From: Candidatus Hydrothermarchaeota archaeon
Lineage (GTDB): Archaea; Hydrothermarchaeota; Hydrothermarchaeia; Hydrothermarchaeales; BMS3B
Direction: 5' to 3'
NCBI GenBank assembly: GCA_015521565.1
Contig: WANX01000132.1
Span: forward strand, 1-50,301
DNA length: 50,301 bases
Under the pieces are notes generated by a model. It ran no database searches. It was not told where the DNA came from and was given only the letters and a program-made list of their open reading frames with translations. Below are positions 2,732 through 25,702 of the stretch, piece by piece (the stretch's first letter is position 1; each line of letters starts with the position of its first letter). Both the position numbers and the translations under genes were made by a program.

Positions 2732-3916
2732 CTATGGCAGAGCCCGCCTTATTATCCCCAGCATCTCCACAGCAAAGGCTGTTACAGAGGCGAGCAGGAG
2801 TGCAGAGCCAAGAAGAGAAGCAGCACCGGCGCCCAGGTACATACCTGAAGCGAGCAGCAGTACACCGGCATTGAAAATGTAGAAAATCCATCTGGAGCGG
2901 CTGGCTGAGAAGAGCTCCTTGAAGGAGGCGGGTGCCCTATCCCTCTCCCTGGGCAGAATTCTGGTCCATGTGAGGGTGGGTATTACATGGTAGAGTCCAC
3001 CTATTGCTGTCTGAACCACAAAGCCCAGAGCAGCAAGATGAGCGTGGAGAAGCGTAAGGTCCCTGCCCGGATACAGCGTCCCCAATATTCCAAGTATCAG
3101 CACCATGAGCAGATAACCCAGCGCTGCAAGAAAGAACCTGGCCTCCACCGGCTCCGACTTCACAGGCACCCGCGAAGGCGCTGTATAGCTCTTCACCATG
3201 TCGTATGTGAAAAGAAGTGCCGCAGCGAGCAGGATTAGCCCCCCCGGAAGAACCAGCTGCCTGAAGCCTGAGAAGCCCAGCACCATGATACCGGCGGCAA
3301 GGAGTGTCCCGTAAAATGTGTAGTCCAGCCAGCGGCGGTTGTAGATGTCCTTAACAACCAGCATGGGCAGCATCCAGGACATGGCGCCGAAAATTATCAG
3401 TGTCACACCCCCCACCAGGGCAAGGTGCGCGTGAGAGGCGCGGTAGCTGTATAGCACGGGGTTTAAGGCTATTAAAAAACCCAGGGTAGCGCCCAGGCTG
3501 AGAAGGACGCTGGAAGCTGCATAAAACTTGAAGGCATAGTTTTCTCCCCTGCGTTCTGCCAGAGTTGCCAGGATGTTGTAGGTGAACAGGTAGAAGCCCA
3601 GGAGCATCAGAAGCGCCCCGATGGAGGCTGCAGCAGCACTCGATGGATAGGTTATGGAGAAGAGTAGAAGTCCGGGATTAAATAGCCAGAAGCTTGCCTC
3701 TGCGGCACGCCTGCTGTGCAGCTCTGTTCCTGAGAGAGTTGGAACCTGCTGGTACATTGTGGCAATTATAACCCCGCATACAAATCCCACCAGGGCAAGG
3801 TGCACATGCACCGGTGTGGCGACAGGAAATCCCAGCAGCCCGGCTATACCCAGGAGTATCCCCAGGACAAGGTACACCAGCGCTGCTGCCAGAAAGCGCA
3901 GGACGATGGCGGACAT
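2732..3916 (-). CDS. Polytopic membrane protein with three HxH motifs (NnrS / heme-copper-oxidase-subunit-I-like)
   Basis: About 12 TM segments arranged as three repeats containing HVHLALVG, HAHLALVG and HAHLAALG. Start reassigned to ATG 3916. Confidence 0.65.
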   Translation of the reverse strand: MSAIVLRFLAAALVYLVLGILLGIAGLLGFPVATPVHVHLALVGFVCGVIIATMYQQVPTLSGTELHSRRAAEASFWLFNPGLLLFSITYPSSAAAASIGALLMLLGFYLFTYNILATLAERRGENYAFKFYAASSVLLSLGATLGFLIALNPVLYSYRASHAHLALVGGVTLIIFGAMSWMLPMLVVKDIYNRRWLDYTFYGTLLAAGIMVLGFSGFRQLVLPGGLILLAAALLFTYDMVKSYTAPSRVPVKSEPVEARFFLAALGYLLMVLILGILGTLYPGRDLTLLHAHLAALGFVVQTAIGGLYHVIPTLTWTRILPRERDRAPASFKELFSASRSRWIFYIFNAGVLLLASGMYLGAGAASLLGSALLLASVTAFAVEMLGIIRRALP

Positions 3917-3921
3917 ATCAA

Positions 3922-4041
3922 CTAACCGTGGATGAGCATTGGCAGACACCGGGTGCATATGTAGTGCTTGTCCTGCCTGTGGTAGTACTTAAGAAGGGGG
4001 ACCTCATCCTCACTTCGCTGGCAGTTTTCACATCTCTTCAT
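3922..4041 (-). CDS. 39-aa CxxC...CxxC zinc/iron-finger microprotein
   Basis: MKRCENCQRSEDEVPLLKYYHRQDKHYICTRCLPMLIHG; RBS GGAGG upstream; lies 5 nt before the next gene. Confidence 0.7.
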   Translation of the reverse strand: MKRCENCQRSEDEVPLLKYYHRQDKHYICTRCLPMLIHG

Positions 4042-4112: not shown

Positions 4113-5600
4113 TCAGGATCTCCTCCTTCTCCTGAGCATCGCATATACCACAAGAGGCACTGCAGCCAGTGCTGCCACAGATGTGGGACCGCACACGCCC
4201 TTCTGCTTCTCCAGCTTTGCGACGCGCTCCTCAAGCTCCTTCTTCTCCCGCTCCATCTGCAGCCACTCTTCCATCATGTTCAGCTTGTCCATCAGTGTAT
4301 CTACAGCACCGTTCCACTGAGTCCAGTCAGGGCCCATCATACTGGCACCCATCCTCCATCTGCGGCCATCGTGGTGCCAGATGTAGTAGTACATTATCTC
4401 TGGAATCTCATCGATCGGGTTGGACTTGTCGATGAGACCCTCCTCGTAGGCGGTATTCAGGAGCTTTTCGGCGTAGTCGTAGACGGTGTTGTAGTCGCTC
4501 ACAACCTTGTCGAAGCTCTCGAAGTAGCCATCCACCCAGTCGCTGGCGTGGCACACTCTGCACACCTTCTTCATCTCTGCTCTGCCCTTCTTTGCCTGCT
4601 CCTCATCGGGCTTCTGCTCTCCCAGTGGCACCTTGCTGGCATCGTCCCACTGAGGCGTGGACCTCTTTGGCTGCAGCTCCCAGTACAGCCTCGCCCCAAC
4701 GTCGTGGGTGCTCTCAACCACACCGCCGAAGCCGGACATGTGGCAGGTGGCGCAGGTGGGTGCGGCTATGTCCTCCGGTCCCCACTGGCCAGGTGGTACG
4801 TCCCAGTTCCAGCTGTCGCCGCTGCTCTCATATATGTTTCCGTGCTTGCTCTCCTTGTATATCTCTATCTGCGGATGGTCTGGACCCACGTGGCACTGGC
4901 CGCAGGTCTCCGGCTTGCGCGCCTCTGCTATGCTGAACCTGTGTCTGGTGTGACAGGCGGTGCAGGAGCCCATGCTACCGTCGGGATTAATCCTGCCTAT
5001 GCCGTTGTTGGGCCACCCGTCCACCAGCTTCCCGTCCCTGGCAATCACATAGCTGCCGTGGCACTGCATGCAGCCCAGCACCTGGTTCTCCTGATTGTAC
5101 TTCTCATCCTCCAGCAGGCCGATGCGCTTCAGGGCTCCGCTGTCTGGATAGAGGGGTGTGAGCCGTCCCCTTATGAAGTCCCTGGGATTGTTCTCCATGG
5201 CAGTCTCCTGCTTCAGCGGGTCCTTGCCCTGCTTGACCATCTCCTGGTACCATGGCTTCAGCGGACCTATGAAAGCCGCCCAGGCGTGCTTGCTCCTTGA
5301 GAACTCCTCCACCTGCTTGGGGTGGCAGCTCTCGCAGTACCTGGGCGAAACCACGGCTGTCACCCTGTAGCCAAAGTGGTCAAACCCCGAGGGGTCGTCC
5401 TCCTTTGCCTGGTGGCACACGTAGCACTTTACACCCACCTTGCTGTGCTTGCTCTCCTCCCACTGTTTTACTATACCAGGCGTTACCGTATCGTGACAGC
5501 TCAGGCATGGAGCACCCGGTTCTTTGAATTCCTGTGCCTTAACTGTGCTGAGCAACATCGCTGCAGCTATTGCAAAAATTAAGAGATGCTTTAACCTCAT
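4113..5600 (-). CDS. hao: Octaheme cytochrome c, hydroxylamine oxidoreductase (HAO) family, probably reductive (epsilon-Hao/OCC-like), with CGP-CTERM-like anchor
   Basis: Sec signal peptide. Eight CxxCH motifs (CLSCH, CYVCH, CESCH, CMQCH, CTACH, CGQCH, CATCH, CRVCH). HAO motifs WPNNGIGRINPDGS, GPDHPQIEIYKESKHG and WHHDGRRWRMGASMMGPDWTQWNG. Tail VCGP-TM-RRRRRS. Confidence 0.88.
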   Translation of the reverse strand: MRLKHLLIFAIAAAMLLSTVKAQEFKEPGAPCLSCHDTVTPGIVKQWEESKHSKVGVKCYVCHQAKEDDPSGFDHFGYRVTAVVSPRYCESCHPKQVEEFSRSKHAWAAFIGPLKPWYQEMVKQGKDPLKQETAMENNPRDFIRGRLTPLYPDSGALKRIGLLEDEKYNQENQVLGCMQCHGSYVIARDGKLVDGWPNNGIGRINPDGSMGSCTACHTRHRFSIAEARKPETCGQCHVGPDHPQIEIYKESKHGNIYESSGDSWNWDVPPGQWGPEDIAAPTCATCHMSGFGGVVESTHDVGARLYWELQPKRSTPQWDDASKVPLGEQKPDEEQAKKGRAEMKKVCRVCHASDWVDGYFESFDKVVSDYNTVYDYAEKLLNTAYEEGLIDKSNPIDEIPEIMYYYIWHHDGRRWRMGASMMGPDWTQWNGAVDTLMDKLNMMEEWLQMEREKKELEERVAKLEKQKGVCGPTSVAALAAVPLVVYAMLRRRRRS

Positions 5601-5692
5601 ATTCTCACCCAGTTAACAATCTCCTAATTCATATATTAAAAAGGTTTTTTTAAAAAGTCATTTAAATAAAGAAAGGGGTGTTAAAATTTAGT

Positions 5693-6793
5693 TTAGATGG
5701 ATACATGTGCATAGCGCCTCAATTCCGGCAGGGGTGAAGAAGCAGCGTACACTGTTCCTGCGCAGGTCTCAACATCCTCATGCCGGTGCACCAGCCTCAC
5801 GGCAGGTTCCCACCCATCACCGCGGCACGTGAGAAGTGCACCGTCTATGAATCCGGAATTTAAAGAAAACTTAATCAGCGCTGTAACAGCACCACCGTCC
5901 TGTCCCGCAGAATCCGCGGTGGAGCGCGCGCCCACTATTCGCCTGAACCTCCCCAGGTACTCCGCCCTCTGTCCGTCCCGGAACAGCGTGTCCTCGAGCA
6001 GTCTTAAGGGAAGCGCTGTTCTGGTGCATGCGGCGTAGCAGAGCTCACAACCCGCCGGGCACCTCCCATTAAGCCTGGGAAGTCCGTTTATCATCTGTAT
6101 CTGTCCGCACACCGCTGCACATGCGCCACAGGCATCGCACACACCCGTGGCCACTATCTCGCGCCACAGCTCCGCGTACCCCTTTCCGCTGGCTAACCGC
6201 AGCACCTGCTGCATGTCCTCCAGATTCCGGGTAGAGTAGTGGGGTACCTCCATCCCCTGCTCAATTCTGGCTTCAATTCTCCTGGCATTCTTCTCCACCT
6301 TGGACCCCGCAACCCGGCTCAGCTCCTCCACGCCATCCTCCAGCTCTATCAGCTCGACAGCACCCTCATCTACCGCCTCATTAAGCAGGATTTCTCCGGT
6401 GCGTGTTCTAACAATCAGGGTGCTCCATCCAGGAGGCGAGCCGGCGCTTCCGGCACTGATATCGGAAAGCTCTGAGGTGAAGTCCACACACAGCCTGCAT
6501 GCCATCCTCGTGTACCTCCTCAGCTCCCTCAGCGGCAGCACCATCTGCATCCTCTTCATTCTCAGTTTCACCACGCCTCCGGAAATCTCCATTCTTGTAA
6601 CCTCAGCAGCGCTTACGCCGTGCTTCTCCAGAAAACCACGCATGCAGGCGTAACTCCAGTTGCCAGTGCAGAACAGCCCAAGCACCAGCTCCACCCTCCC
6701 TATCCACTCTCTCCCGGTGGCTGCCTGCAACGCCTGCAGCTTTCGCAGCCCCTGCACCTGGCATGGAGTTCCCACAAATCCGAGCCTTCTCAC
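5693..6793 (-). CDS. Circularly permuted F420H2 dehydrogenase/FrhB-family subunit (FrhB_C, 2x[4Fe-4S], FrhB_N)
   Basis: Starts with GFVGTPCQ..LGLFC..CRLCVDFTSELSDISAG..GWSTLIVRT (FrhB C-domain). Then CDACGACAAVC...CPAGCELCYAAC (ferredoxin). Ends with QDGGAVTAL..IDGAL..WEP..AGTVY (FrhB N-domain). GTG start overlaps the napD stop, with RBS GAGGTGGA. Confidence 0.85.
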   Translation of the reverse strand: MRRLGFVGTPCQVQGLRKLQALQAATGREWIGRVELVLGLFCTGNWSYACMRGFLEKHGVSAAEVTRMEISGGVVKLRMKRMQMVLPLRELRRYTRMACRLCVDFTSELSDISAGSAGSPPGWSTLIVRTRTGEILLNEAVDEGAVELIELEDGVEELSRVAGSKVEKNARRIEARIEQGMEVPHYSTRNLEDMQQVLRLASGKGYAELWREIVATGVCDACGACAAVCGQIQMINGLPRLNGRCPAGCELCYAACTRTALPLRLLEDTLFRDGQRAEYLGRFRRIVGARSTADSAGQDGGAVTALIKFSLNSGFIDGALLTCRGDGWEPAVRLVHRHEDVETCAGTVYAASSPLPELRRYAHVSI

Positions 6794-7026
6794 TCCACCT
6801 CGTCCTCCACGTTCAGATACACCAGCTGGAAGTCCACAACATCCTCCCAGTTTTCTATCCTCTCAGACAGTTTTTTCAGCTCCTTTGTGGTTCTGCCCTC
6901 CATAACCACTGCTATTCCCTTTGCACCCCTGCCCTTGACCTCCACCCCCGGAAGACTCCGGAGGCTCCTCTCAACCTCCTCCTCCCTGCCCGGCACGGGC
7001 ACAACAACTGCTCCGGATATCGGCAA
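6790..7026 (-). CDS. napD: NapD chaperone for periplasmic nitrate reductase
   Basis: TTG start after GGAGGTGA; (M)PISGAVV...LPGVEV...GIAVVMEG...VVDFQLVYLNVE is the NapD pattern. Confidence 0.85.
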   Translation of the reverse strand: MPISGAVVVPVPGREEEVERSLRSLPGVEVKGRGAKGIAVVMEGRTTKELKKLSERIENWEDVVDFQLVYLNVEDEVE

Positions 7027-7031
7027 GTGCT

Positions 7032-7874
7032 TCACCTCCTGATTCTGTAATACAGGGCGCCGGAGGGACATGCATCCCTGCACAGCCCACAATTATCACA
7101 GTCTTTATCGTTGTAATCTTTATCTATACCCAGCTCAACAGGGCGCAGACCGTAGGGGCATACGCGATTGCATTCACCACAGAAGATGCATCTCTCCACC
7201 TTTTTGCCAATTCGCAGCAAACGCTTTGCCCCCAGCGCTGAGAGGAATCCTCCCGCAGGGCACAGAGAGCGGCACCACACCCGCCTCGCTGCCAGCGTGT
7301 CTACCGTTAGCACACCCGCAAGCAGGAGCAGCCCACCGGTGCTCAGGGTACCGTACGTCAGGAGGTAGAAGAGCTCCCTGCCCACAACATGGGGCAGATC
7401 AAAGGCGGAAACAACCGGAGTTGCGAAGAGCAGCGTGAGCAGCAGAGAGAAAACAAGCAGCTGGTAGCGGTGGTCTCCCGCTATGAGCACCAGTCTCCTG
7501 CGCATCCACAGACGCCCCCTCAGCCGCTGGGTGAGCTCCAGGAGAAACCCCGCCGGGCACAGCCAGGAGCAGAATACCCGGCCCATCAGAAGGGTAACCA
7601 GCAGCGGTAAAAGAGCACTGAGAATCAGCGGCAGGTACAAAACCCTGGATGCCAGTACCGCTTCAAGCGCTGCCAGCGGATGGGTGATGCTCACTCCATA
7701 GAAGCTGAAGCTCCATGTATCACCCCATACCCTGGACACCCTCGGGGTTGGAAGCTCGCCCATAGCTATTCTTGAGGGTGCCCATTCTATGGGATTCTGA
7801 GAGTACATGGGCACGGCTATGAGCACCCCGAGCACCAGTAGCTGGAAAATCCGCCTCGCATGCTCTGCCTTCAT
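7032..7874 (-). CDS. napH: NapH/MauN membrane quinol dehydrogenase subunit
   Basis: TM segments; GRVFCSWLCP and WCRSLCP CxxxCP motifs; two C-terminal CxxCxxCxxxCP clusters. Start ATG 7874. Confidence 0.9.
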   Translation of the reverse strand: MKAEHARRIFQLLVLGVLIAVPMYSQNPIEWAPSRIAMGELPTPRVSRVWGDTWSFSFYGVSITHPLAALEAVLASRVLYLPLILSALLPLLVTLLMGRVFCSWLCPAGFLLELTQRLRGRLWMRRRLVLIAGDHRYQLLVFSLLLTLLFATPVVSAFDLPHVVGRELFYLLTYGTLSTGGLLLLAGVLTVDTLAARRVWCRSLCPAGGFLSALGAKRLLRIGKKVERCIFCGECNRVCPYGLRPVELGIDKDYNDKDCDNCGLCRDACPSGALYYRIRR

Positions 7875-7875
7875 A

Positions 7876-8616
7876 CTACAGCCTCTTAACCACCCTAACT
7901 GCAGGCAGCTCAACCCCGGGTCCGGCTCTCCCTATCACATTCCTCACCATGGCTGCATACCTCTCCTCGAAGTAGGTGAGCTTTCTTCCCGGCTCAAGGG
8001 TGGCGCTGGCTATCTTCTCATTTACAGGACACACGTAGTTGCACATCCCGCAGCCAACGCAGTGCTTCTCGTTGACGTAGGGCCGTATCCCCACCGCACC
8101 CTCAATAACCTCGCTGGGGGGATAGTCCAGCATGGCATCATCCCGAAGGGGACAGTTGTAGTAGCATTCACCGCAGGAGTCGTACTGCCAGGCGAGGCAG
8201 ATATCACGGTTGAGCACAGAAACACCCATCTTCAGCTCATCCGGCATAGAGAGCAACGTTTCTCTGGTATTTCTTATTCTCATCAGTGCGCCCGTTGGAC
8301 ATGCTTCCCCGCAGAGCAGATACTCGCCCAGGGGCTCGTCTTTGCCCTCGCCGGTGCGCTTAAGACACAGATAGCACGGAGTCTGCAAGGGGTCTATGTA
8401 GGGTGTGGCAAACAGAGCCCCTGCAGCTATGTCGAAGAACCTTATTGAATCGTAGGGGCACGCCTCACCGCACCTACCACAGCGTATGCAGCGGGCAAGA
8501 AAGTCACGGGTGGCTCCCGGAGGGCGAATCACCTGCCTGCGGACGCCTCCTCCAATACCGGCGAAGCCGAGCAGAAACAGGCTCTTCATGAAGTTCCTGC
8601 GGCTCAGCCTCACCAT
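7876..8616 (-). CDS. napG: NapG/MauM polyferredoxin
   Basis: Tat motif SRRNFMK; IRPPGA..FLARCIRCGRCGEACP; four Cys clusters including CLAWQYDSCGECYYNCP and CVGCGMCNYVCP. Confidence 0.9.
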   Translation of the reverse strand: MVRLSRRNFMKSLFLLGFAGIGGGVRRQVIRPPGATRDFLARCIRCGRCGEACPYDSIRFFDIAAGALFATPYIDPLQTPCYLCLKRTGEGKDEPLGEYLLCGEACPTGALMRIRNTRETLLSMPDELKMGVSVLNRDICLAWQYDSCGECYYNCPLRDDAMLDYPPSEVIEGAVGIRPYVNEKHCVGCGMCNYVCPVNEKIASATLEPGRKLTYFEERYAAMVRNVIGRAGPGVELPAVRVVKRL

Positions 8617-9041
8617 CCACCCTCCCTTTCAATCTCAACCACCGCCACCTCATAGTGTCTGCCCTTAATCTGATACGGAACCACCACAATACCCCTTACC
8701 CTCACCTCAGCACCCTGCATGGGCATTGTCCCTCTGGTCACAATCCATATATCACCTGTGCCGTCGCTCAGGAGATATGGCTGCTCATCCACAAACTCAA
8801 AGGCAAGTCCGGGTGTCACAGTACCCCTGAGAACCACCTCCTTTCCCTCATACGCCTCCGGATTTTCCAGTATATCTCCTATCCTGAGCTCATCGCCGCT
8901 CTGCTGCAGAATACCTGAAGTAGCCCCCTCGCCCGAAGCATCTGCCCCCTCCACATCTCCGACCATGGCCACCTCCTTCTCCACACAGCCAGGGAGGAGC
9001 AAAAGCATCAGCAGCAGCACAGCAGACCGCATCTCATCCAC
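8610..9041 (-). CDS. Lipoprotein with probable OB-fold domain, inside the nap operon
   Basis: Lipobox-like LLLPGC; IGDILENPEAYEGKEVVLRGTV...LSDGTGDIWIV..VRVRGIV is an OB-fold-like pattern; no CxxCH. Confidence 0.7.
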   Translation of the reverse strand: MDEMRSAVLLLMLLLLPGCVEKEVAMVGDVEGADASGEGATSGILQQSGDELRIGDILENPEAYEGKEVVLRGTVTPGLAFEFVDEQPYLLSDGTGDIWIVTRGTMPMQGAEVRVRGIVVVPYQIKGRHYEVAVVEIEREGGW

Positions 9042-9142: not shown

Positions 9143-11620
9143 CTATGCCCTGGCCACCTTTATCTTGCACACCTTGTAGTCTGGCTCCGCAGCCTTTGAC
9201 CAGCTCTCGGGCACGTCTATGGTCAGGTCGTTTATCAGCCTGTTCTCATCAAACCAGGGCACGAACACCATACCTGGCTGAGCGCGTTCTGTAACCCAGG
9301 CGGGCAGAACTATGCTTCCTCGCGGGGAAATAAGCTTTATCTTTTCCCCGCTCTTAACTCCGAGCTTTCTGGCATCGCTGGGATGAATCTCCACGTACGC
9401 AGCCGGGTTGAGCTCCCGCAGCAGGCGCACCCGCATGGTCATCGTACCCGTATGCCAGTGCTCTATGACCCTGCCCGTGTTAAGCACGAAGGGGTAGCTC
9501 TCGTCGGGCATCTCGTAGTCCAGGGTGGGTGTCAGGGCGCGAATCACAGCCTTGTCCTTGGTGTTCTTGAGCTTGTGCTCCCCGTAGTAGTTGATGGGAC
9601 CGGGGTAGCCCAGCTCCTCCATGTGCTGGTCGTAGAGGGTCACATACCCCGTGGCGTACCTCTTCTTATCCCTTCCGAAGACCCTGATGGCGTAATCGCG
9701 GGAGATGTAGCGCTTGTTGCTTCCCCGGTTTTCAAACTCGGTGCTGGGACACGGCCACTGCACCCCGCCCGCATGGGCCTTGAGCTTCTCGTAGGTGGCA
9801 CCGTACAGGTCAACGTCTCTGCCCCTGGTGAGCACCCTGTACTCGTTCCAGGCTGCCTCTTCGGGAGTCATCTCGCCCCTCTTGACCCGGGGGTCGTCGT
9901 AGAATCCGAGACCGTACACCTCAATGGTGTCCAGTATCTTCAGGGGCTCTTTCCTGTCCCTTATCGCATACCTGACCTTCCTGCCCAGCTTCTCGGATAT
10001 CCTCCTGGCAACCTCGTTTATCTGCCAGAAGTCAGGTCTGGCATCTTCCGGTGGCTCCACCAGCTTCTCGATAAACTGACTCCTCCTGTCGGTCTGTCCC
10101 ATCACGCCCTCCTTCTCCACCCACATGGCGCTGGGAAGCACCACCGTCGCCACCTCGGTGGTGCGGTTCCAGTAAATGTCGCTCACCACAGTGAAGGCCT
10201 TCTTCATAGCCTCCGCATACCTGTCGCAGTTGGGCAGGCTCTGGGCGGGGTTGGTGGTGTTTATCCATATCGCCTTTATGTCACCCTTCTCCAGACGCAT
10301 GAACATGTCCACCGCTGGCCCTGTGGGCTTGGTGGGCATCTGCTCAAACGGCACACCCCACACCTCCGCCACCTCCCTGCGGTGCTGGGGATTCACCAGC
10401 GCCCTGTGCCCCGGCAGGATGTGGGTTAAGCCGCCCTGCTCCCTCGTACCACCGCAGGCGTTGGGCTGCCCCGTGAGGCTCAGGGAGTCGCATCCGGGTT
10501 TGCCTATCTTGCCGGTGAGCAGGTGCAGGTTGTGAACCTGGCAGTTGAGCTCCACACCCTGGGTGCGCTGATTCAGCCCCATGGTCCACATGCTCAGCGC
10601 CGTGTACCCCCTGCGTCCGAACCACCTGGCTGCGAGGCGTATATCTTCGGCATCCACGCCTGTGATGTCCTCCACCTTCTCGGGGGCGTAGTCCTGCAGG
10701 AACTCCCTGAAGGCGTCAAGGTCCATCTCCTCCCCCTTGGGTCCAAGCCCGACTCTGAAGGTGCAGTACTTCAGGTGCTCGTAGTCAACCATGTCCTCTT
10801 CTATTATCACGTACGCCATTGCGTTCAGCAGGTACATGTCGGTGCCTGGCTTGAACTTCAGGTGGAGGTCAGCATACCTCGCCGTTGGCGTGGTTCTGGG
10901 GTCTGCCACAATCACCCTTACCCTATCCGGGTAGGCGCTCTTCCTGTCTATGACCCTGCGGAAGAGCATTGGGTGCTGCTCCGCCATGTTTGAGCCTATG
11001 ATGAAGATGGTGTCGGCGCTGTCAATGTCGTCGTAGCTTCCTGCAGGCTCGTCGGCGCCGAAGGTGTTCAGATACCCGCCCACCGCCGAAGCCATGCACA
11101 GCCTGGGGTTGCCCTCAACGTTTGCGGTGCCAATTATCCCCTTGAAGAGCTTGTTCGCAGCGTACGCCTCCTGGGTGGTGTTCTGCCCCGAGCCGTACCA
11201 GGCGACGCTGTCGGGACCGTACTCCTCTATGTACCTGACAAAGGTGTCAGCGATTAAATCAAGTGCCTCCTCCCAGCTTACCTCCTTATAGGTGCCGTCC
11301 TCCTGCCTGACCAGGGGCCTGGTAAGGCGCTCCTTTCCGCCCCCGCCGTACATGATGTGGGGCAGTGAATACCCCTTCATACACAGCCTGCCGAAGTTTA
11401 TGGGTGAGTTTGCATCGCCCTTCACGGCAACAACTTTACCATCACGAACACCCACAAGTACTGTGCATCCGGTACCGCAGAACCTGCACTGTGCCCGTCC
11501 AAAGGTGATTCCCCCGTCTCCCTGGGCTGCCATTGCGGGAGCACTCATACCGGCAGCAAGCATCGCTGCTGTGGCAGCAGATGTCTTTATAAATTCACGT
11601 CTGCTCATGCTTATTTCCAT
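9143..11620 (-). CDS. napA: Periplasmic nitrate reductase catalytic subunit
   Basis: Tat signal SRREFIK; FS0 motif CRFCGTGC...C; NPRLCMASAV (Cys Mo ligand); SLTGQPNACGG; TGRVIEHWHTGTMT. Confidence 0.95.
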   Translation of the reverse strand: MEISMSRREFIKTSAATAAMLAAGMSAPAMAAQGDGGITFGRAQCRFCGTGCTVLVGVRDGKVVAVKGDANSPINFGRLCMKGYSLPHIMYGGGGKERLTRPLVRQEDGTYKEVSWEEALDLIADTFVRYIEEYGPDSVAWYGSGQNTTQEAYAANKLFKGIIGTANVEGNPRLCMASAVGGYLNTFGADEPAGSYDDIDSADTIFIIGSNMAEQHPMLFRRVIDRKSAYPDRVRVIVADPRTTPTARYADLHLKFKPGTDMYLLNAMAYVIIEEDMVDYEHLKYCTFRVGLGPKGEEMDLDAFREFLQDYAPEKVEDITGVDAEDIRLAARWFGRRGYTALSMWTMGLNQRTQGVELNCQVHNLHLLTGKIGKPGCDSLSLTGQPNACGGTREQGGLTHILPGHRALVNPQHRREVAEVWGVPFEQMPTKPTGPAVDMFMRLEKGDIKAIWINTTNPAQSLPNCDRYAEAMKKAFTVVSDIYWNRTTEVATVVLPSAMWVEKEGVMGQTDRRSQFIEKLVEPPEDARPDFWQINEVARRISEKLGRKVRYAIRDRKEPLKILDTIEVYGLGFYDDPRVKRGEMTPEEAAWNEYRVLTRGRDVDLYGATYEKLKAHAGGVQWPCPSTEFENRGSNKRYISRDYAIRVFGRDKKRYATGYVTLYDQHMEELGYPGPINYYGEHKLKNTKDKAVIRALTPTLDYEMPDESYPFVLNTGRVIEHWHTGTMTMRVRLLRELNPAAYVEIHPSDARKLGVKSGEKIKLISPRGSIVLPAWVTERAQPGMVFVPWFDENRLINDLTIDVPESWSKAAEPDYKVCKIKVARA

Positions 11621-11784: not shown

Positions 11785-12444
11785 TTAAATGTTGCCTTCC
11801 AGTGACAGCATCGTCATGAAGGCCCGCTTTCCCGTGTCGGATATGTAGTAGTGGCGGTTTTCGTCCTGTGCTATCAGCCCCGCCTGCTTTAGCACCCTGA
11901 GGTGGAATCCAAGTTTGGCGGGCTCGTCGATGTTGAGGTAGTTCATAATATCGGTAAAGCGCGCCTTTCCCTTCGCATGGAGGTACTCGATTATCCTGCG
12001 CCTTATGGGGTTGGATAGAGATTTTAGCACATCCTTTCCCGCTTCTCCAGTGCCTGTCTTCTCCCTGAAAACCTCCTCTATCCTGGTCTCCTCAAGAAGC
12101 CGGAGTATCTTGTTCCTTATCTCCTCCACTTTGAAGGGTTTGAGTATGTAGTCGCTGGCACCCATCTTCATGGCCCGCACGGCACTGTCCACAGTACCAA
12201 AGGCGGTGATTATTATCACCTTCGTGAGAGGCGAGTATTTCTTTACGTTCCTCAGCACCTCCATCCCATCGGCTCCGGGCATCACCAGGTCTGTAATAAC
12301 CAAATCGAACTTCTGCTTCTTTATCATGTTTATTGCCTTTACACCATCCTCTGCTATTTTCGGGGAGTATCCCTTCTTCTCCAGCAAGATCTTCAGTCCT
12401 TCCCTGAGCTTCGGGTCATCTTCAACTATCAGTATTTCCTGCAT
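11785..12444 (-). CDS. Response regulator, REC plus ArsR-like winged-HTH output
   Basis: ILIVEDD, DLVITDLVMP, ITAFG and KPF, followed by LSNPIRRRII..FHLRVLKQAGLI. Confidence 0.9.
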   Translation of the reverse strand: MQEILIVEDDPKLREGLKILLEKKGYSPKIAEDGVKAINMIKKQKFDLVITDLVMPGADGMEVLRNVKKYSPLTKVIIITAFGTVDSAVRAMKMGASDYILKPFKVEEIRNKILRLLEETRIEEVFREKTGTGEAGKDVLKSLSNPIRRRIIEYLHAKGKARFTDIMNYLNIDEPAKLGFHLRVLKQAGLIAQDENRHYYISDTGKRAFMTMLSLEGNI

Positions 12445-13879
12445 GCGACTCACCCGGGAGATATATTCTGAAGGTTGTTCCCCTTCCCAGGCTGCTCTCC
12501 ACGTCTATCCTTCCGCCGTGCTTTTCAATTATGCTGTAGGTTATGTAGAGTCCCAGACCGGTGCCCTTGCCCACCTCCTTCGTCGTGAAGAAGGGGTCAA
12601 ATATCCTGCCCAGGTGCTCCTCGGGTATTCCTGTGCCGGTATCGCTGATTTCCACCACCACCTCTCCATCGCTTCTGCGGGTTCGTATGGTGAGCTTTCC
12701 TCCTTCGTCCATGGCATCGATAGCATTTGTTGCAATGTTTATAAACGCATCAAGGAGTTTTGCTGAATCTCCCTTTATTTCCGGAAGCTTCTCGTCCAGG
12801 TCAAGCTCGAGTTTTATATTTTTGTACTGTAATTGGGGTTTAAGGATATTTAACATTTTCCTGATTACCTCGTTAACCTGTGTAACCTCATTTTTAAACT
12901 CCCTCTGCCTTGAGAAATCCAGCAGCCCCTGCACCACTCTGGACGCAAGAGTTGCCTCCTCCTCGATGATTTCCAGCACCTTTTTTGTCTCCCGGTCCTT
13001 CACATCCTCCCTGTGAATCTGTGAGTAGAGGATTATATTGGCCAGCGGATTGTTTATCTGATGCGCTATGCCAGCGGCGAGCTTGCCCACAGTCGCCATT
13101 TTTTCACTCTGTATGACCTGCGCTTCCTTGTTTTTGAGCTCCTCGACCATACTGTTAAAAACCCTTGCAAGCTCTCCGAGTTCATCCTCCTTTTCAACAT
13201 TCACCCTGGCGGAGTAGTCCCGCTTTGAGAGCTTCAAGGCGGCCTCCTTGACCTTTTTGAGGGGTGTGATAACCACAATTCTCATTATTCCAAGTATTGC
13301 AAGCATAATCCCAAGTGAAAGAGCAAAACCGTAGAATATAAGCTGGGTCCGGGTCCTCTCCAGGGATGTTAGAACGTCACTTACAGGTATCTCCACCACA
13401 AGAGCACCGCGCAGGTCGCCCTCCCTGTATCCCTGGTCCACATGACATCTCAGGCACGGCTTCTCGATGTACATGGGCACCGCATATTCATACAGCTCAG
13501 AGGTTACTGTGTACCTCTCCTCGGACACACCCTGCATAAAGTCCAAAAGAGCCTCTCTTTCAAACTCGTCTGCGGGATAGTTCTCGGGGTCTCTGGGCTT
13601 GAAGGTTATCAGCTTTACCTTGTAGTCGTACATTTCATTTGAGAGCTCTGAAAGCTCATAGGTGAGCTCCGCGGGCACGGGCATGACTCTCTCCCTGTTT
13701 TCGGCAGCCCACAGCCTGACAAGCAGTATCTGGTCTGTCACCGTCTTTGCCTGCTGTCTGAGCTGCTCCATTATGTTCCTCTCATGACTTTCACTCATAT
13801 AGTAGAAGATGCTCTGCACTGACAGAAACACTATTACTCCCACGGCAAGCATCACCTTTGTGCCCACGCTTGCCCTCAC
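12422..13879 (-). CDS. Sensor histidine kinase with extracellular heme-c (Tll0287/DUF3365-like) domain and HAMP
   Basis: TM, then extracellular domain with PRDPENYPADEFE and CLRCH, then TM, HAMP (DELGELARVFNSM), AHQINNPL and N/G1/F/G2 boxes (FDPFFTTK, GTGLGL). Confidence 0.9.
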   Translation of the reverse strand: MRASVGTKVMLAVGVIVFLSVQSIFYYMSESHERNIMEQLRQQAKTVTDQILLVRLWAAENRERVMPVPAELTYELSELSNEMYDYKVKLITFKPRDPENYPADEFEREALLDFMQGVSEERYTVTSELYEYAVPMYIEKPCLRCHVDQGYREGDLRGALVVEIPVSDVLTSLERTRTQLIFYGFALSLGIMLAILGIMRIVVITPLKKVKEAALKLSKRDYSARVNVEKEDELGELARVFNSMVEELKNKEAQVIQSEKMATVGKLAAGIAHQINNPLANIILYSQIHREDVKDRETKKVLEIIEEEATLASRVVQGLLDFSRQREFKNEVTQVNEVIRKMLNILKPQLQYKNIKLELDLDEKLPEIKGDSAKLLDAFINIATNAIDAMDEGGKLTIRTRRSDGEVVVEISDTGTGIPEEHLGRIFDPFFTTKEVGKGTGLGLYITYSIIEKHGGRIDVESSLGRGTTFRIYLPGESHAGNTDS

Positions 13880-14862
13880 CCGTTCACCTCCGGGGGGAAC
13901 ACCTTCACCGGCACGCGCCCTGGAAGCTGACGCAGGTCAAGCACTGCGATGCCCCCGTTGTAGTCTGCCACGTATGCTCTGCCGTCGGAAACCGCTATAC
14001 CATAGGCGTTGCCGGGGGTGTCGTACTCTGCCACCAGCTCCAGGCCACCATCCTCAAGAATCTTCAGAATCGCCACCCCGCGGTTGGCGAGGGTTACCAG
14101 CAGGTAGTCCCCGTATGTTGCCAGCCGCAGTGCAAATCCCGGCAGGGGAATGTTCTGGTGGTGTACCAGTCTGCTGCCGGCCATTCTGTAAACATCCACA
14201 CCGCCATCTGAGCTTGCAACGTATGCGTGGTCGCCTGCTATTACAACGTCATGGGGCACACTGGTGGTGGGCACAAAGTAGAGGAACTCCACGGAGTCGT
14301 TTGTGACTCGCGCAACGTACAGGCGCATGGCGAAGTCGGTCAGGTAGAGCAGCTCATCCTGCACATCAACACTTTTTGGATAGCTGTACTTTACCGGCTT
14401 GTAAAGTCCCACCGGTCTTAGGGTGGATACGTCCAGTATAACCAGACCGGAGGAGACGCAGGCAAGGTATGCTCTTTTCCCTGATATCACAATCCTCTGG
14501 GCTGTGTGGTTCAGCTCCAGTTCTGCAATCTTGCTGGGACGGGAGGGGATGCTAACATCCAGGATATGCAGTCTGCCCAGAGTGTCGCTGACAAAGAGCA
14601 CGCTCCCCGAGAGCGCCAGCGTCTGAGCCTCCCCGGGGGTCTTTACACCTCCAATTCTCCGGAGGCTGCCCGCACCTGTTCTGAAGATGTCCAGCCCCCA
14701 GGGTGAGACCGCATACAGATAATCTCCGTATGCGAGCACATCATAGTAATAGTGAGGCTTTTCTGGCTCCGGATACTGAATCTCAGAATTGCCGCCGGAT
14801 ACACATCCTGCAAATATAACCAGCAGGGATAACGTCCAGTAGATAGTTCTGTGCCCAGACAT
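13876..14862 (-). CDS. LVIVD-repeat beta-propeller lipoprotein
   Basis: Lipobox IFAGC; repeats such as AYLACVSSGLVILDVS, AYVASSDGGVDVY and AYVADYNGGIAVLD. Stop overlaps the kinase start. Confidence 0.8.
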   Translation of the reverse strand: MSGHRTIYWTLSLLVIFAGCVSGGNSEIQYPEPEKPHYYYDVLAYGDYLYAVSPWGLDIFRTGAGSLRRIGGVKTPGEAQTLALSGSVLFVSDTLGRLHILDVSIPSRPSKIAELELNHTAQRIVISGKRAYLACVSSGLVILDVSTLRPVGLYKPVKYSYPKSVDVQDELLYLTDFAMRLYVARVTNDSVEFLYFVPTTSVPHDVVIAGDHAYVASSDGGVDVYRMAGSRLVHHQNIPLPGFALRLATYGDYLLVTLANRGVAILKILEDGGLELVAEYDTPGNAYGIAVSDGRAYVADYNGGIAVLDLRQLPGRVPVKVFPPEVNG

Positions 14863-21180: not shown

Positions 21181-21879
21181 TTACGCCTCTTCCTTCTCCG
21201 CTAATTCCAGAACCTCCTTCAGCTGCTCCGCATCCAGGCTGAGGTAGCCTCTCGTCAGCTTTGCCACGCCGCGGTAAAAGTCGCTCTCAGCCTCCTGGAG
21301 CACAACATCGCAGAACCTGGGGACCCAGGCCAAGATGTGCTCCTCCAGGAAGCTCTTCTGCACCTCGAGCAGGCGCAGCGCCTCTTTTCTGTCGCCCTTC
21401 CTCCAGCTCTCCGCCTCGCGGTAGCTCGCCAGCGCAAGGAATTTAAGCTCTGTGCCTATGTAGTCCGGCGGCCCGCCGTACTCCTCGTTCAGCGCAAACC
21501 CTGCCTTGAGGTACTTGCTCATCACCTTTTGCGTCGCCTCGCCCATCACCCTGTCCTCGCCCAGGTAAACCGACTCGTAGGGCGGCGGAGGGGAGTAGCC
21601 CTTCTTGATGCCCCTGAAGAGCCTCGTGAACTCAACCGCCAGCTCTTCGGTCAGCTTTTCCAGCTCCCTCTCCCTGTTCAGCTTAAGAAACTGCTCCAGG
21701 AGCTCCGCACCTTCCCTCAGCTCTCCCCCGGCAAGCTGCGCCAGCGCCCTGAGCTCCTTCTGAAAGCCCTCACTCAGCATCTTTGCCACAAACTCCTCTT
21801 TTGGCACGGAGTTGTAGAAGCTGCTCAGGAAGGCGTATATCGTACTCCTCCTCAGCGCTATCTCGGCGAACATGCTCAC
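21181..21879 (-). CDS. TorD/DmsD-family redox enzyme maturation chaperone
   Basis: EFTRLF, PPPYESVYL, PDYIGTELKFL, FLEEHILAWVPRF and FYRGVAKL. Confidence 0.9.
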   Translation of the reverse strand: MSMFAEIALRRSTIYAFLSSFYNSVPKEEFVAKMLSEGFQKELRALAQLAGGELREGAELLEQFLKLNRERELEKLTEELAVEFTRLFRGIKKGYSPPPPYESVYLGEDRVMGEATQKVMSKYLKAGFALNEEYGGPPDYIGTELKFLALASYREAESWRKGDRKEALRLLEVQKSFLEEHILAWVPRFCDVVLQEAESDFYRGVAKLTRGYLSLDAEQLKEVLELAEKEEA

Positions 21880-21902
21880 ACCTTAAAAAATTAAAGGGGT
21901 GC

Positions 21903-22322
21903 TCAGGGATTCACCGCACCCTCTACTCCTGCGTTCATGTACAGCTCTCTCGCAGGTCCGTCCTGCTTGTGGCATCCGAGGCAAATAGCCCTGTCCACCA
22001 CGCCAGGAGCACCCCGCACAGGAAGCTTGTACTTCCGCTGGTACAGGAAGTCGTCCGCATAGCCGGAGATGTGGCAGTAGCTGCACTTAAGCCCGAGAAC
22101 CTCCGCATGGATGTTGTGCCACCTCTTGCCAAGCTCCATGCCGTACTCTTCGCCCACGTCTATCTCGCCGCTTCTTATCTTCTCCGCAGTCTCCCAGAGG
22201 TTCACGGGCACCTCCTTCTCAACTTCCCTGACCACCGTCTCCTGCTTCTGGGCGCAGGCTGCGAAGAGCAGCAGCATTGCGATCGCAAGGAGAGCCGCAA
22301 CTTTAAACCTCATCTTTATCAC
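21903..22322 (-). CDS. Diheme cytochrome c lipoprotein
   Basis: Lipobox LFAAC; WHNIH, CSYCH and CLGCH. Confidence 0.85.
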   Translation of the reverse strand: MIKMRFKVAALLAIAMLLLFAACAQKQETVVREVEKEVPVNLWETAEKIRSGEIDVGEEYGMELGKRWHNIHAEVLGLKCSYCHISGYADDFLYQRKYKLPVRGAPGVVDRAICLGCHKQDGPARELYMNAGVEGAVNP

Positions 22323-22323
22323 C

Positions 22324-22983
22324 TCACACCAGGTAGTACACCTGCGGCCTCGTGCCGTACTCCTTCTTGAGCTGAATAGCTCGCCTGCTCGCTATGAGCC
22401 TTGAAACCTCGCTGCTGGGGTCGTCGAGGTCGCCGAAGTACCTCGCTCCTGCGGGGCACACGGGTACGCACGCAGGTGAGGTGTCGTAGTCACTACCCGG
22501 CTTCTTGCCCTCCTTCAACGCCTTCTCGATGCGGTGCCAGCACAGGGTGCACTTCTCGGCAACGCCCGGCTTCTTCCTGTGCAGGGGGTGCCTCGCCTCA
22601 GCTGGCAGAGCCTCGTAGGGCGTCTTCTCGCCGTTGGGGTAGAGGGTCTTCTCCTTGTCTATGAAGTGGATTACTCCGTAGGGACAGGCGGCGATGCAGT
22701 AGCGGTAGCCCCTGCACTTTTCATAGTCTATGAGCACCACGCCGTACTCGTTCTTGCTTATCGCCTTCGCGGGGCACGCCTTAACACAGGGCGGATTCTC
22801 GCAGTGCTGGCAGTTCATTGGCACAAAGATTCTGCGAACGCTGGGATACTTTCCCTGCTCGTACTCGAGCACAAAGTTCCAGTAGTTCCCCGGCTGGACC
22901 ATGTTCTCAACTTTGCACGCGGCGACGCAGCTCCTGCAGCCTATGCACTTCGCCAGGTCTATAACCAGGCCGTATCTCACCAT
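22324..22983 (-). CDS. Four-cluster Fe-S beta subunit (ArrB/DmsB/PsrB family)
   Basis: CIGCRSCVAAC, PMNCQHCENPPCVKACP, CRGYRYCIAACPY, KCTLC..PACVPVCPAGARYFGDLDDP and GTRPQVYY. Confidence 0.92.
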   Translation of the reverse strand: MVRYGLVIDLAKCIGCRSCVAACKVENMVQPGNYWNFVLEYEQGKYPSVRRIFVPMNCQHCENPPCVKACPAKAISKNEYGVVLIDYEKCRGYRYCIAACPYGVIHFIDKEKTLYPNGEKTPYEALPAEARHPLHRKKPGVAEKCTLCWHRIEKALKEGKKPGSDYDTSPACVPVCPAGARYFGDLDDPSSEVSRLIASRRAIQLKKEYGTRPQVYYLV

Positions 22984-22996
22984 CTACACCACCTCC

Positions 22997-25702
22997 TCAC
23001 GCCCTGTACACCTTAACCTTGGTGTCCAGGAAGCTGTTGTGCCCTGAAATCATGTCAGGGTGCAGCTCCAGCACCAGGTTTATCGCTGTCCCCTTCCTGG
23101 CATACTCCGGAAAACTCCTTGCAAATCTCCCGTAGTGGTAGCTCACCGCGACGGTGTCCGGGCGAATACCCTCGCTGAGCTTTGCCCTGGCTTTGACCTT
23201 GCCTATCCTGCTCTCTATCCACACCTCGTCGCCGTCCTTGATTCCAAGCTCCTTCGCCTTGGCTGGATTTATGAGCACGTAGTTGTAGCTGGAGTCGTGG
23301 GCAACCTCGTTTAGCACCGGGTTTAGAGCATCTGGATTGGCCTGGTTCCTGTACATGCGCTTGTAGGTTATCAGGTACAGCGGGTACTCCTTGGCCTTCC
23401 TGTGGGGTGTTGGCAATGCATGCTCCTTCCTTGGGAAGGGCGAGAGCTTTATCTCAATGAGCTTCTCAAGCTCGTCGCCACTCGCCTCGTACCACTCTTC
23501 GAAGACCCTCCTGACCCTGCTCTCCCTGCTCATTATCTCCAGCACTTTTTCGCGAGTATGCACCAGCTGCTCCGCATAGAAGTGCATCTTGGGCCTGCCC
23601 TTGCCTCTGAACTTCTCCGCGTCTTTAAGATACCTGTGCTCCACGTCCACAGTCTTCGCAACCAGCCCGTGCTTAAGCGCGTAGTCGAAGGGCTTCTTAG
23701 TTTTCTTCTCCCAGAGTATCTTGACAGAGAGCCTGCTCAGCTCCTCCGCGTCCTTCTTGCCCGCAAGGCTGCCGCCGTTCTTTGCCTTGAGCTCCTGGTA
23801 CCTGCTCCTGAGCGGGTTGAACTCGCCCTTCTTGAACTTCCACTTCTTGTGCATTCCCTCAATGTACCTGTCGAGTATGCCCGCCTTGTCTGCGAGTATC
23901 ATCAGGATATCGAAGTCCTGGTGGGGCAGGTTGTAGGCGTTGACTATGGGCTGGCGTATTGCGCTGTGGCTCGTGCCCGGGGTCCAGCGGGTTGGGGAGA
24001 AGTGCCAGCACTCCAGGTAGCTCTTGTTCGGCAGCACAAGGTCGCTCATCTGTGTCTGCTCGCTCAGCACGATGTCTATTGCTATCTGCTTCACCTTCTT
24101 TGCGCCCTCTATCTGCTTCTCCACGTCCGAGGTGGAGAACAGCCTGTTGGTGGCATAAACTATCTGAAGCTTTGGCTTGTAGGGCAGGCCGTACTTCTCG
24201 GGCTCCAGGTAGGTGAGGTGGGGCTGCTGCGCCACATTGTGCGTCCCATGCGGGTAGAAGACGCTCTCTGAGAGGTCCACCTTACTGGGCGGGTACTCGC
24301 ACTTGCCGGGCTTCATGTTCTTGTAGTCCGGATTGGCCTTGTGCAGCATGAGCCCGCCCACGGCGTCGAAGTTTCCTACCAGCATCTGCACCATGAGCGC
24401 CGCTCGCCAGTTCTGGGTGCCGTACTCTCTGGCGCTCATCCCGCGGAAGGTGTGAATAGCTACAGGACGGTAGCGGAGCTTTTTGCCCTCAAGCTCTATT
24501 GTGGAGCCTATCCTGGCGTGCTCTCCGAACTCCTTTGCCACTCTCATTATCGTCTCCGCGGGTATGCCAGTAATCTCCTCAGCCTCGCTCAGGTCAACGT
24601 TCTGGAACAGGTAGTCCTTGAAGACCCTGAAGGAGGTGCGGTACTCCTTTCCATCGACGGTAACCCTGCCGTCCAGCAGTATCTCCTCCGCCTCGTCGTA
24701 GGGCACCGCCTTCTGGGCATTGCTGTCCCACACCAGGGGGTTGCCGTCCTCGTCCCTGAGGAACTTCCCATCCTCGCCCACAAGATACACCGCGTCGGTG
24801 TACTCCTTCAGGAACTCCTCGTCCACATAGCCTTGAGCTATGAGCTCCCTCGCCATCGCAAGCAGGAAGACCACATCTGAGCCCGGCTTTATGGGTATCC
24901 ACTCCGTAGCCTTGGCAGCGAGGTTGCTCAGCCTGGGCTCAACCACCACCAGCTTCATCCCGTCCTCGACGACGCGCTTCATGCAGACCCTGTCCAGCCA
25001 TCGCGCCCACTGCTCAGCCTCTGTGAAGTTCGCCCCCATGTTAAGGTAGTACTCCGTGTACTCCAGGTCAGGCAGGAAGCCGTGCCCGCCCCAGGTTAGC
25101 TCATCCGCCACGTGGCGCGCGGCCTCGCAGACAGTGGTTCTGTGAACGTTGTTGGGCGAGCCTATGGCCTCGTTTATAAAGGCCTTGAGGAACTTGTCCT
25201 GCACCAGGTACTTGCCGTGCCCCCACAGGAAGGTTATTGAACGCGGGTCGTAGTCCATCGCCTCTTTTATCATCCTTGCAGCCTCTTCGAAGGCCTCCTC
25301 CCAGCTTATCTCCTTCCACTTGGGGTCTGCGTCGGGACTCTTGTCAGGGTTGGTGCGCTTGAGCGGCGCCTTTATCCTGTAGGGGTTGTAAACGTCGAAG
25401 AGACCGCTCTGCCCCTTGGGACACAGGTGCCCCACGTTGTAGGGGCTTGCGGGATTGCCGTAGATGGCGCGTATAACGCCGTTTACCCTGCGCACCCTTA
25501 TTCCGCAGAAGTTTACGCACATTACGTCGGTGCTGGGTATGAGCACGTCTTCGCTTACTGCAGTGGCGACCTGCTTTACACTGCCCTGAGCCCTGCTCGC
25601 TTCGGCAGCTACGCTGCCCAGCGAAACCACCTGCGAGCCAAGAGCAGCCATTCCTGCTATAAGGCTCGACTTTTTTAAAAATTCCCTCCTCGAAAGATTC
25701 AT
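22997..25702 (-). CDS. Tat-exported Mo/W-bisPGD oxidoreductase catalytic subunit (Arr/Arx/Psr-related, atypical)
   Basis: SRREFLKK Tat signal; TDVMCVNFC...HLCPKG; APLKRTNPDK..DPKWKEISWEEA; HRTTVCEAAR (Cys ligand); PIKPGSD; C-terminal INP..A..LGIKDGD..GIRPDTV. Confidence 0.85.
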   Translation of the reverse strand: MNLSRREFLKKSSLIAGMAALGSQVVSLGSVAAEASRAQGSVKQVATAVSEDVLIPSTDVMCVNFCGIRVRRVNGVIRAIYGNPASPYNVGHLCPKGQSGLFDVYNPYRIKAPLKRTNPDKSPDADPKWKEISWEEAFEEAARMIKEAMDYDPRSITFLWGHGKYLVQDKFLKAFINEAIGSPNNVHRTTVCEAARHVADELTWGGHGFLPDLEYTEYYLNMGANFTEAEQWARWLDRVCMKRVVEDGMKLVVVEPRLSNLAAKATEWIPIKPGSDVVFLLAMARELIAQGYVDEEFLKEYTDAVYLVGEDGKFLRDEDGNPLVWDSNAQKAVPYDEAEEILLDGRVTVDGKEYRTSFRVFKDYLFQNVDLSEAEEITGIPAETIMRVAKEFGEHARIGSTIELEGKKLRYRPVAIHTFRGMSAREYGTQNWRAALMVQMLVGNFDAVGGLMLHKANPDYKNMKPGKCEYPPSKVDLSESVFYPHGTHNVAQQPHLTYLEPEKYGLPYKPKLQIVYATNRLFSTSDVEKQIEGAKKVKQIAIDIVLSEQTQMSDLVLPNKSYLECWHFSPTRWTPGTSHSAIRQPIVNAYNLPHQDFDILMILADKAGILDRYIEGMHKKWKFKKGEFNPLRSRYQELKAKNGGSLAGKKDAEELSRLSVKILWEKKTKKPFDYALKHGLVAKTVDVEHRYLKDAEKFRGKGRPKMHFYAEQLVHTREKVLEIMSRESRVRRVFEEWYEASGDELEKLIEIKLSPFPRKEHALPTPHRKAKEYPLYLITYKRMYRNQANPDALNPVLNEVAHDSSYNYVLINPAKAKELGIKDGDEVWIESRIGKVKARAKLSEGIRPDTVAVSYHYGRFARSFPEYARKGTAINLVLELHPDMISGHNSFLDTKVKVYRA

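Follow-up and report, generated by a model that had tools for sequence, protein, structure and literature searches.

Hydroxylamine oxidoreductase (HAO)-family members that lack the tyrosine of the P460 cross-link are described as reductases, and in vitro four epsilon-HAOs of this Tyr-less kind act on nitrite and hydroxylamine reductively (PMC8042395). In the Nautilia pathway, a periplasmic nitrate reductase (Nap) is combined with Hao as a hydroxylamine:ubiquinone reductase module run in reverse (reverse-HURM), and a Tyr-less HAO has been proposed to substitute for NrfA after Nap (PMC3701875). An octaheme encoded beside nap in a cable bacterium is expressed during the dissimilatory reduction of nitrate to ammonium (DNRA) and was proposed for that pathway (10.1101/2020.02.22.960823). 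Among archaea, the octaheme IhOCC belongs to the HAO clade and is without P460 (PMC9250108), and the octaheme nitrite reductase ONR, with its 3-1-4 heme pattern, has been reported in one archaeal phylum (PMC10716430). Here we describe an octaheme encoded near a nap cluster in a 50,301-nucleotide stretch (the window, at its whole length) from a Candidatus Hydrothermarchaeota archaeon (contig WANX01000132.1 of assembly GCA_015521565.1; the genome is labeled G000 and is 93% complete). The hao-like gene lies at 4113..5600 on the minus strand and encodes a Tyr-less HAO-family octaheme cytochrome c of 495 amino acids, structurally nearest to IhOCC. All window features given below as start..end are on this strand.

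The protein carries eight CxxCH motifs, at residues 32, 59, 89, 177, 213, 233, 283 and 347, and no CxxCK. This count agrees with the initial annotation and is not a chance outcome, as none of 20,000 shuffles of the sequence gave more than two CxxCH. The motif at residues 177-181 (5058..5072) is that of heme 4, predicted to be the catalytic heme, His-ligated and five-coordinate; the catalytic heme of HAOs is heme 4 (PMC8042395, PMC8840924). A hydropathy peak and sequence reading predict a Sec signal peptide in the N-terminal hydrophobic segment (about residues 1-22; 5535..5600). At the other end, a coiled-coil stalk is followed by a CGP motif, a hydrophobic helix and an Arg cluster (4113..4202). 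We call this anchor CGP-CTERM-like, and no more, since the hao tail was unmatched by the CGP-CTERM model TIGR04288 at E<=5; the tail of an ONR on contig C100 of the same genome reached 10.9 bits against a cut-off of 21. Archaeosortase D (TIGR04175) was not found in the genome, which has one exosortase-family gene and about ten open reading frames (ORFs) with a CGP-type tail in common. One cytochrome with nine CxxCH, at G000:C116:2786-4807, ends in the same type of tail as hao. Four genes above the PF01578 cut-off indicate cytochrome c maturation in this genome. The octaheme is thus predicted to be exported, heme-loaded and membrane-tethered.

By sequence, the closest solved relative is IhOCC (4QO5), with an E value of 7.5e-58, or 1e-73 when a 121-sequence profile was used. 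The AlphaFold model of the protein (pLDDT 90.7) again found IhOCC 4QO5 in a fold search, with a Z score of 31.3 and a root-mean-square deviation of 2.2 A over 392 residues, while oxidative HAOs, HDH and HAOr scored 20-22 and ONR/NrfA less than 10. All top nine fold matches are IhOCC, HAO, HAOr or HDH entries, and the model has the HAO fold with its C-terminal helical bundle. The protein was also placed far from oxidative HAOs in a quick tree of 68 rows chosen from fetched loci and proteins, none of them epsilon-Hao, IhOCC or ONR, and we base no clade or donor claim on this tree. Judged from sequence and modeled fold, the protein is a member of the HAO family (clade 1 of the multiheme cytochromes), probably of the reductive Tyr-less type, and shows neither the cross-link Tyr of an oxidative P460 HAO/HDH nor the CxxCK of an NrfA/ONR.

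The missing tyrosine was examined at residues 421-431 (4308..4340), where the sequence reads MMGPDWTQWNG, with Met421 in place of a conserved His and Gln428 or Trp429 in place of the cross-link Tyr. PDB sequence searches stopped short of the Tyr region of Nitrosomonas HAO, and oxidative-type HAOs from fetched loci (L044 and L045, Nitrosomonadaceae; L042, Gammaproteobacteria) were used as references instead. In a MAFFT alignment with these, their cross-link Tyr, which is Tyr467 of Nitrosomonas HAO as follows from the chain numbering in the sequence search, falls on Gln428. The conserved His of oxidative HAOs, eight residues ahead of the Tyr, aligns with Met421, and the same spacing leads to Trp429. 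In all 121 aligned sequences both columns are free of Tyr; position 426 is Tyr in 11. hhalign left the Tyr stretch gapped and so does not fix the register, and the structure searches gave no residue-level alignment. The register is thus not fixed by structure, yet the Gln428 and Trp429 readings both give no Tyr, and there is none anywhere in residues 407-485, so that the Tyr-less reading of the initial annotation stands. We take the His that Met421 replaces to be a heme ligand in oxidative HAO. Asp241-His242 (4875..4880), a pair also present in oxidative HAOs, aligns with the D-H of L044 and L042 and is invariant in all 121 sequences; these are presumably distal-pocket residues. Six conserved non-motif His together with Met421 could provide seven distal heme ligands, as many as an HAO with seven six-coordinate hemes would need; the model is without hemes, and these ligand roles are assumed.

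Compared with the described systems, the protein resembles IhOCC of Ignicoccus hospitalis in being archaeal, in sequence and fold, for which IhOCC is the best match, and in a Met that the displayed alignment pairs with Met421. However, the two are only 28-36% identical, and the protein described here belongs to a nap cluster and ends in a CGP-type tail. Other Hydrothermarchaeota proteins (L088, L089) are closer than it is to the IhOCC C-terminal motif and form a separate branch in the quick tree. With epsilon-Hao of Nautilia profundicola and Campylobacter it shares the pairing of a Tyr-less HAO with Nap. Unlike reverse-HURM, which besides Nap and Hao comprises a NapC/cM552 donor and the hybrid cluster protein Hcp, G000 has no such donor that we could find (no NapC/NrfH-type tetraheme, PF03264) and keeps ONR and the cytochrome cd1 NirS. 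Three PF03063 genes are present in G000; the two that were scanned are CO dehydrogenases and not Hcp, and the third is a 738-aa frame. By gene layout, the locus can be likened to pMHC of Ca. Electronema and BOGUAY_0691 of Ca. Maribeggiatoa, octahemes whose genes lie immediately downstream of nap operons and are expressed with them during DNRA (10.1101/2020.02.22.960823), but the pMHC operon has napB and napF, whereas the present cluster lacks napB and contains an FrhB-like insert, and its octaheme ends in a predicted anchor. HAOr (Kustc0458, 6H5L) of Kuenenia stuttgartiensis has the same Tyr-less HAO fold (Z 22.1) and is reductive only; it differs in its proposed product, NO, and in a dedicated diheme partner (PMC8042395), no partner gene being found beside hao here. 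ONR (Thioalkalivibrio, 2OT4/3SXQ) likely catalyzes the same reaction, and its locus in G000 holds an HAO paralogue in a relative, but it has a Lys-ligated CxxCK heme, belongs to a different clade (Z <10) and is a separate gene, on C100, in G000.

Along the window the cluster runs from the LVIVD protein through kinase, regulator, napA, small gene, napG, napH, napD and a circularly permuted FrhB-like gene to hao. The closest named records, from Hydrothermarchaeota including Ca. Pyrohabitans, are 86-91% identical and share this order. The initial annotation had placed hao right after the nap operon; it is indeed near nap but not directly adjacent, as the permuted FrhB-like gene and a 92-bp gap stand between napD and hao. 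We followed this linkage through 41 genomes, which are mutually kin. A napA orthologue was present in eight (with one further partial match of 49%), and all eight also have a close hao (>=66% identity), compared with one of the 33 others (G031, 59% identity, 62% complete). HAO-family genes of lower similarity were detected in G004, G009, G019, G020, G027 and G036. In six of the eight napA genomes hao is on the napA contig, in three gene orders: four have it behind the FrhB-like gene, in G008 it overlaps napD, and in G013 it ends 9 nt ahead of napA; in the remaining two, G004 and G010, the locus breaks at contig ends. Beyond these genomes, a Desulfobulbia record (L038) reads napA-napD-hao, and metagenome loci L096 and L104 read napA-napG-napH-napD-hao. 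Among 69 distant metagenome loci, a full-length napA match was found in two and a weak partial one in two. These data support what was first proposed, an archaeon in which nap is linked to an HAO-family octaheme of the reductive, Tyr-less type. In L083:1103-5939 (G009), a nap-type kinase and regulator (74-88% identity) directly precede a distant HAO (39%); this HAO gene has an in-frame TAG, and no napA was found in G009.

HAO and ONR also occur in exchange at another locus. The cassette on C100 reads larE, LVIVD, kinase, regulator, thioredoxin-like, ONR and glyA (labels partly from sequence reading), and ONR fills this slot in G000, G002 and G003. In L034 the flanks are the same, but the slot holds another HAO without the Tyr, a paralogue with 65% identity to the window protein. 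In G001, a genome with three close hao copies, hao lies between glyA and the kinase; in G004 (L078) the slot is empty and a remnant of the downstream transglutaminase-like gene stays. When L034 (8500-14000) is compared with L050 (G002), collinearity extends over the regulator, promoter and signal peptide (80.5%) and resumes at the anchor linker (84%), and the catalytic domain alone differs, HAO versus ONR. Their signal peptides have 15 of 24 residues in common. A separate HAO, P0049, 77% identical to the L034 protein, also has this type of signal peptide, a finding that speaks against one mis-assembly as the cause. This pattern suggests that HAO and ONR are interchangeable at this locus.

The genome holds further candidates for nitrite reduction. 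The C100 ONR (G000:C100:13655-15592, PF02335) is an intact-looking protein of 646 aa with three CxxCH, one CxxCK and four CxxCH, an E value of 9e-110 to Thioalkalivibrio ONR, and a CGP tail as in hao. NirS, at C83:11825-13516, matches cd1 structures with an E value of 7e-199 and is followed in its cluster (G000:C83:8088-13516) by genes for a cupredoxin subunit, subunit I of an eNOR-like enzyme and a protein with COX1-like repeats. The eNOR-like heme-copper enzyme has Gln at the active-site Tyr position (His-Pro-x-x-Gln), the diagnostic Gln of eNOR (PMC8756737). No NirF/NirN paralogue was found in G000, and NirS may thus lack heme d1, which makes its function uncertain. By these matches, this genome has three candidate nitrite-reducing enzymes: HAO, ONR and NirS. 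The statement that nrfA and nir are absent therefore holds for the 43 window ORFs scanned and fails for the genome, where a search for nrfA, nirK and nirS returned ONR and NirS; NirK had no match above cut-off in any of the 41 genomes. Across the 41 genomes, ONR is present in five and NirS in seven (one partial). NosZ gave only short CuA-domain matches in four of five genomes, none above cut-off, and NarG was not found in G000. In three of the eight napA genomes, G001 (99% complete), G013 (97%) and G010 (62%), ONR/NrfA, NirS and NirK were not found, except for one 27-residue sub-threshold PF02335 match in G001. The wording 'NrfA-independent' Nap plus Hao DNRA thus overreaches, since ONR (with its CxxCK) and NirS are encoded elsewhere in the genome; it fits three of the eight napA relatives only. 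For this genome the label is wrong, whereas some relatives make it plausible. The genome also encodes a Tyr-containing heme-copper oxidase and a cbb3-type oxidase (G000:C90:3204-4556 and C128:1827-4039). Together with dsrAB (on C3) and the CO dehydrogenases, these oxidases point to a wide respiratory range of the lineage. In G001, a 3318-residue open frame with several multiheme-like matches (G001:C2:540088-544614) is possibly a giant surface cytochrome.

We favor, with moderate confidence, the reading that the octaheme is a respiratory nitrite-to-ammonium reductase acting on nitrite from the neighboring NapA. Electrons would pass from the quinol pool through NapH/NapG to the octaheme, a route that we infer because no NapB or NapC/NrfH was found (NapB in none of 15 genomes; no NapC-family match in G000, G004 or G008). 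Six bis-His hemes and one His/Met421 heme would form the wire, and nitrite would be reduced with six electrons to ammonium at the active site, five-coordinate heme 4 with Asp241/His242. hao would be induced together with napA. Ammonium is put forward as the product mainly because an HAO paralogue shares promoter, signal peptide and anchor with the ammonia-forming ONR in a close relative. Loss of the Tyr does not by itself fix ammonium as the product, because HAOr of Kuenenia is Tyr-less too, and its proposed product in vivo is NO (PMC8042395).

Several points weigh against this reading. HAOr reduces nitrite slowly, at 0.1 U/mg compared with 4.6 for hydroxylamine, besides its proposed release of NO (PMC8042395), and the function of most HAO-family clades is described as not known (PMC9213671). 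Among the eight napA genomes, three also have ONR and four NirS; in G000 itself HAO is not required for nitrite removal, as ONR is present and NirS stands beside an eNOR-like enzyme. Siroheme nitrite/sulfite-reductase-family matches, unclassified save for the G000 DsrAB, occur in all five genomes checked. The co-occurrence of nap and hao is not independent, because the genomes are kin. Only four of ten metagenome loci at >=50% identity (from 79 loci, many of them short) have napA nearby, and L102 has no napA within 8 kb on either side of hao. Finally, the swap evidence comes from few assemblies, and the G000 and G003 ONR genes have a leader that differs from the L034/L050 type, so that the swap may have run in either direction.

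A bolder form of the reading, which we offer tentatively, would treat HAO and ONR as plug-in catalytic modules of one surface-anchored chassis, made up of a regulator, a promoter, a signal peptide and a CGP anchor common to both. On the natural genetic evidence of the swap, the HAO clade would then be a true respiratory ammonia-former, and a NapB-less NapA plus HAO, fed by NapGH (perhaps with F420H2 through the permuted FrhB), would make up a complete archaeal nitrate-to-ammonium module, the sole route in some relatives.

The alternative that survives best, an unlikely one in our view, is a reductase with a protective role at the cell surface, where it would clear nitrite, NO or hydroxylamine and so spare, for instance, DsrAB; the respiratory flux would then pass through ONR or NirS. 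DsrAB is inhibited by nitrite, and dsrAB, ONR and NirS are all in the genome; in addition, hao appears to have its own promoter, and G001 has three close copies. HAOr provides a precedent in being 28 to 46 times faster on NO or hydroxylamine than on nitrite (PMC8042395). However, no other periplasmic nitrite reductase was found in G001 or G013, hao is tightly placed against napD in G008 and against napA in G013, and its paralogue swaps with ONR.

Lower still in probability is a one-electron reduction of nitrite to NO, as in anammox HAOr, which would feed an eNOR-like enzyme and yield N2O. HAOr itself (PMC8042395) and the eNOR-like enzyme of the genome favor this possibility, as does the lack of a detected NirF/NirN, which might leave NirS without heme d1. 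Yet the eNOR-like gene clusters with nirS and not with hao, HAOr is structurally no nearer than oxidative HAOs (Z 22.1 versus 31.3 for IhOCC), and the swap partner ONR forms ammonia without released intermediates (PMC8840924).

It is distinctly improbable that the protein is mainly a multiheme electron relay to NapA, replacing NapB and NapC. The failure to detect either of these would fit such a role, and so would the minimal cassettes with napA, napD and hao only (G008, G013 and L038), with no close napH found in G008 or G013. A relay is nevertheless at odds with the invariant Asp241-His242, with L100, which appears to carry a diheme cytochrome between napA and hao, and with hao paralogues that occur away from napA and swap with ONR. 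Reduction of a sulfur compound instead of a nitrogen oxide is very improbable: it was raised as speculation for another clade of HAOs (PMC9213671), sulfite is a further substrate of ONR (PMC8840924), and dsrAB and a second twin-arginine translocation (TAT) molybdoenzyme of the Psr/Arr type are at hand, but the linkage of hao is to napA, in six of eight genomes and in bacteria. Least credible is an oxidative HAO cross-linked through another Tyr, for although Tyr405 is invariant (121 of 121 sequences), it lies 23-24 residues from the cross-link position, and both the distance from oxidative HAOs in the quick tree and the reductive context speak against it.

The surroundings of hao bear on its regulation and partners. 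The 92-bp gap after the FrhB-like gene is part of an AT-rich intergenic region (5601..5695) with a TATA-like element and a T5A7 motif, likely the own promoter of hao. The T5A7 motif is also upstream of napA, and is common to the napA and hao upstream regions in G000 and in three relatives where both could be read. Genome-wide, the promoter motif has three matches, two of them before napA and hao, with 0.2 expected; the corresponding P of 0.005 is overstated, as the motif was chosen with these regions already in view. It is missing upstream of the ONR genes of G000 and G003 and upstream of nirS. A sigma-70 promoter/terminator scan was uninformative for an archaeon.

napA (9143..11620) encodes a TAT signal, and among solved structures it is nearest to the periplasmic nitrate reductase of the Desulfovibrio type (2JIO/2NAP). 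The NapA group is tight: about 65 matches are listed at >=60% identity, and identity then falls to <=48%. This group includes Nitrospirae, Desulfobulbaceae and Planctomycetota records, a membership that suggests horizontal exchange of a NapB-less nap-hao cassette. In a predicted complex of NapA (38-825) with the N-terminal part of HAO (28-225), the score was 0.01 against a mark of 0.32, which we do not count for or against binding. Between napA and napG, a small protein (8610..9041) has no Pfam or NCBIfam match and is conserved in L027, L029, L030, L085, L096 and L104; an oligonucleotide/oligosaccharide-binding (OB) fold would be a guess. It is followed by a napG-like ferredoxin (7876..8616; best match NF007012, below cut-off), a napH-like membrane ferredoxin (7032..7913; best match TIGR02163, below cut-off) and napD (6790..7092; PF03927, E 1e-13).

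The FrhB/FpoF-like protein (5693..6793) is circularly permuted, with an FrhB C-domain, a ferredoxin and an FrhB N-domain, in that order. Among 120 database matches the domain order is opposite in 112, collinear in six and unclassified in two. The insert is absent from the other nap-hao cassettes examined, outside the four genomes in which hao follows the FrhB-like gene. Further permuted paralogues are at G000:C73:21899-23065 and G000:C12:13353-14825, one of them directly before a pyruvate-synthase-like operon. At the far side of napA, the LVIVD-repeat protein, histidine kinase and response regulator (11785..14862) are paralogues of the cassette that precedes ONR on C100, at 30%, 48% and 51% identity, respectively. 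Downstream of hao, also in four same-genus relatives, is a membrane protein with three weak COX1-like His-rich repeats (2732..3958), and similar proteins are encoded at C83:8088-9404 and on C34. The second TAT molybdoenzyme operon (window 21181-25702) comprises a 901-aa Psr/Arr-like protein, an Fe-S subunit, a small diheme cytochrome and TorD, and is below family cut-offs.

Previous genome studies of Hydrothermarchaeota reported napADGH (PMC6775978), Nor with no NirS/K found (PMC6759336), mention of denitrification (PMC6946796) and nirS (PMC10999283). The word 'hydroxylamine' does not occur in the main texts of the first three of these, and a 2015 list had 11 archaeal HAO-family proteins (PMC4429474). 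In the literature consulted, no HAO-type nitrite reductase or ONR/HAO swap was found named for Hydrothermarchaeota; the genes may already stand in tables of PMC6775978 (cytochromes and nitrate) or in Supplementary Table 1 of PMC10716430. The combination of Nap with a Tyr-less octaheme is already published for bacteria, and the new observation most worth pursuing is the exchange of ONR and HAO.

Tyr-less HAOs are widespread, and their physiological role is mostly not known (PMC9213671). The natural exchange of ONR and HAO within one promoter, signal peptide and anchor provides a direct way to test a respiratory, ammonia-forming role. If this role is borne out, HAO would supply the nitrite reductase reported as missing from some Hydrothermarchaeota (PMC6759336), and DNRA would be undercounted by surveys of nrfA and onr.

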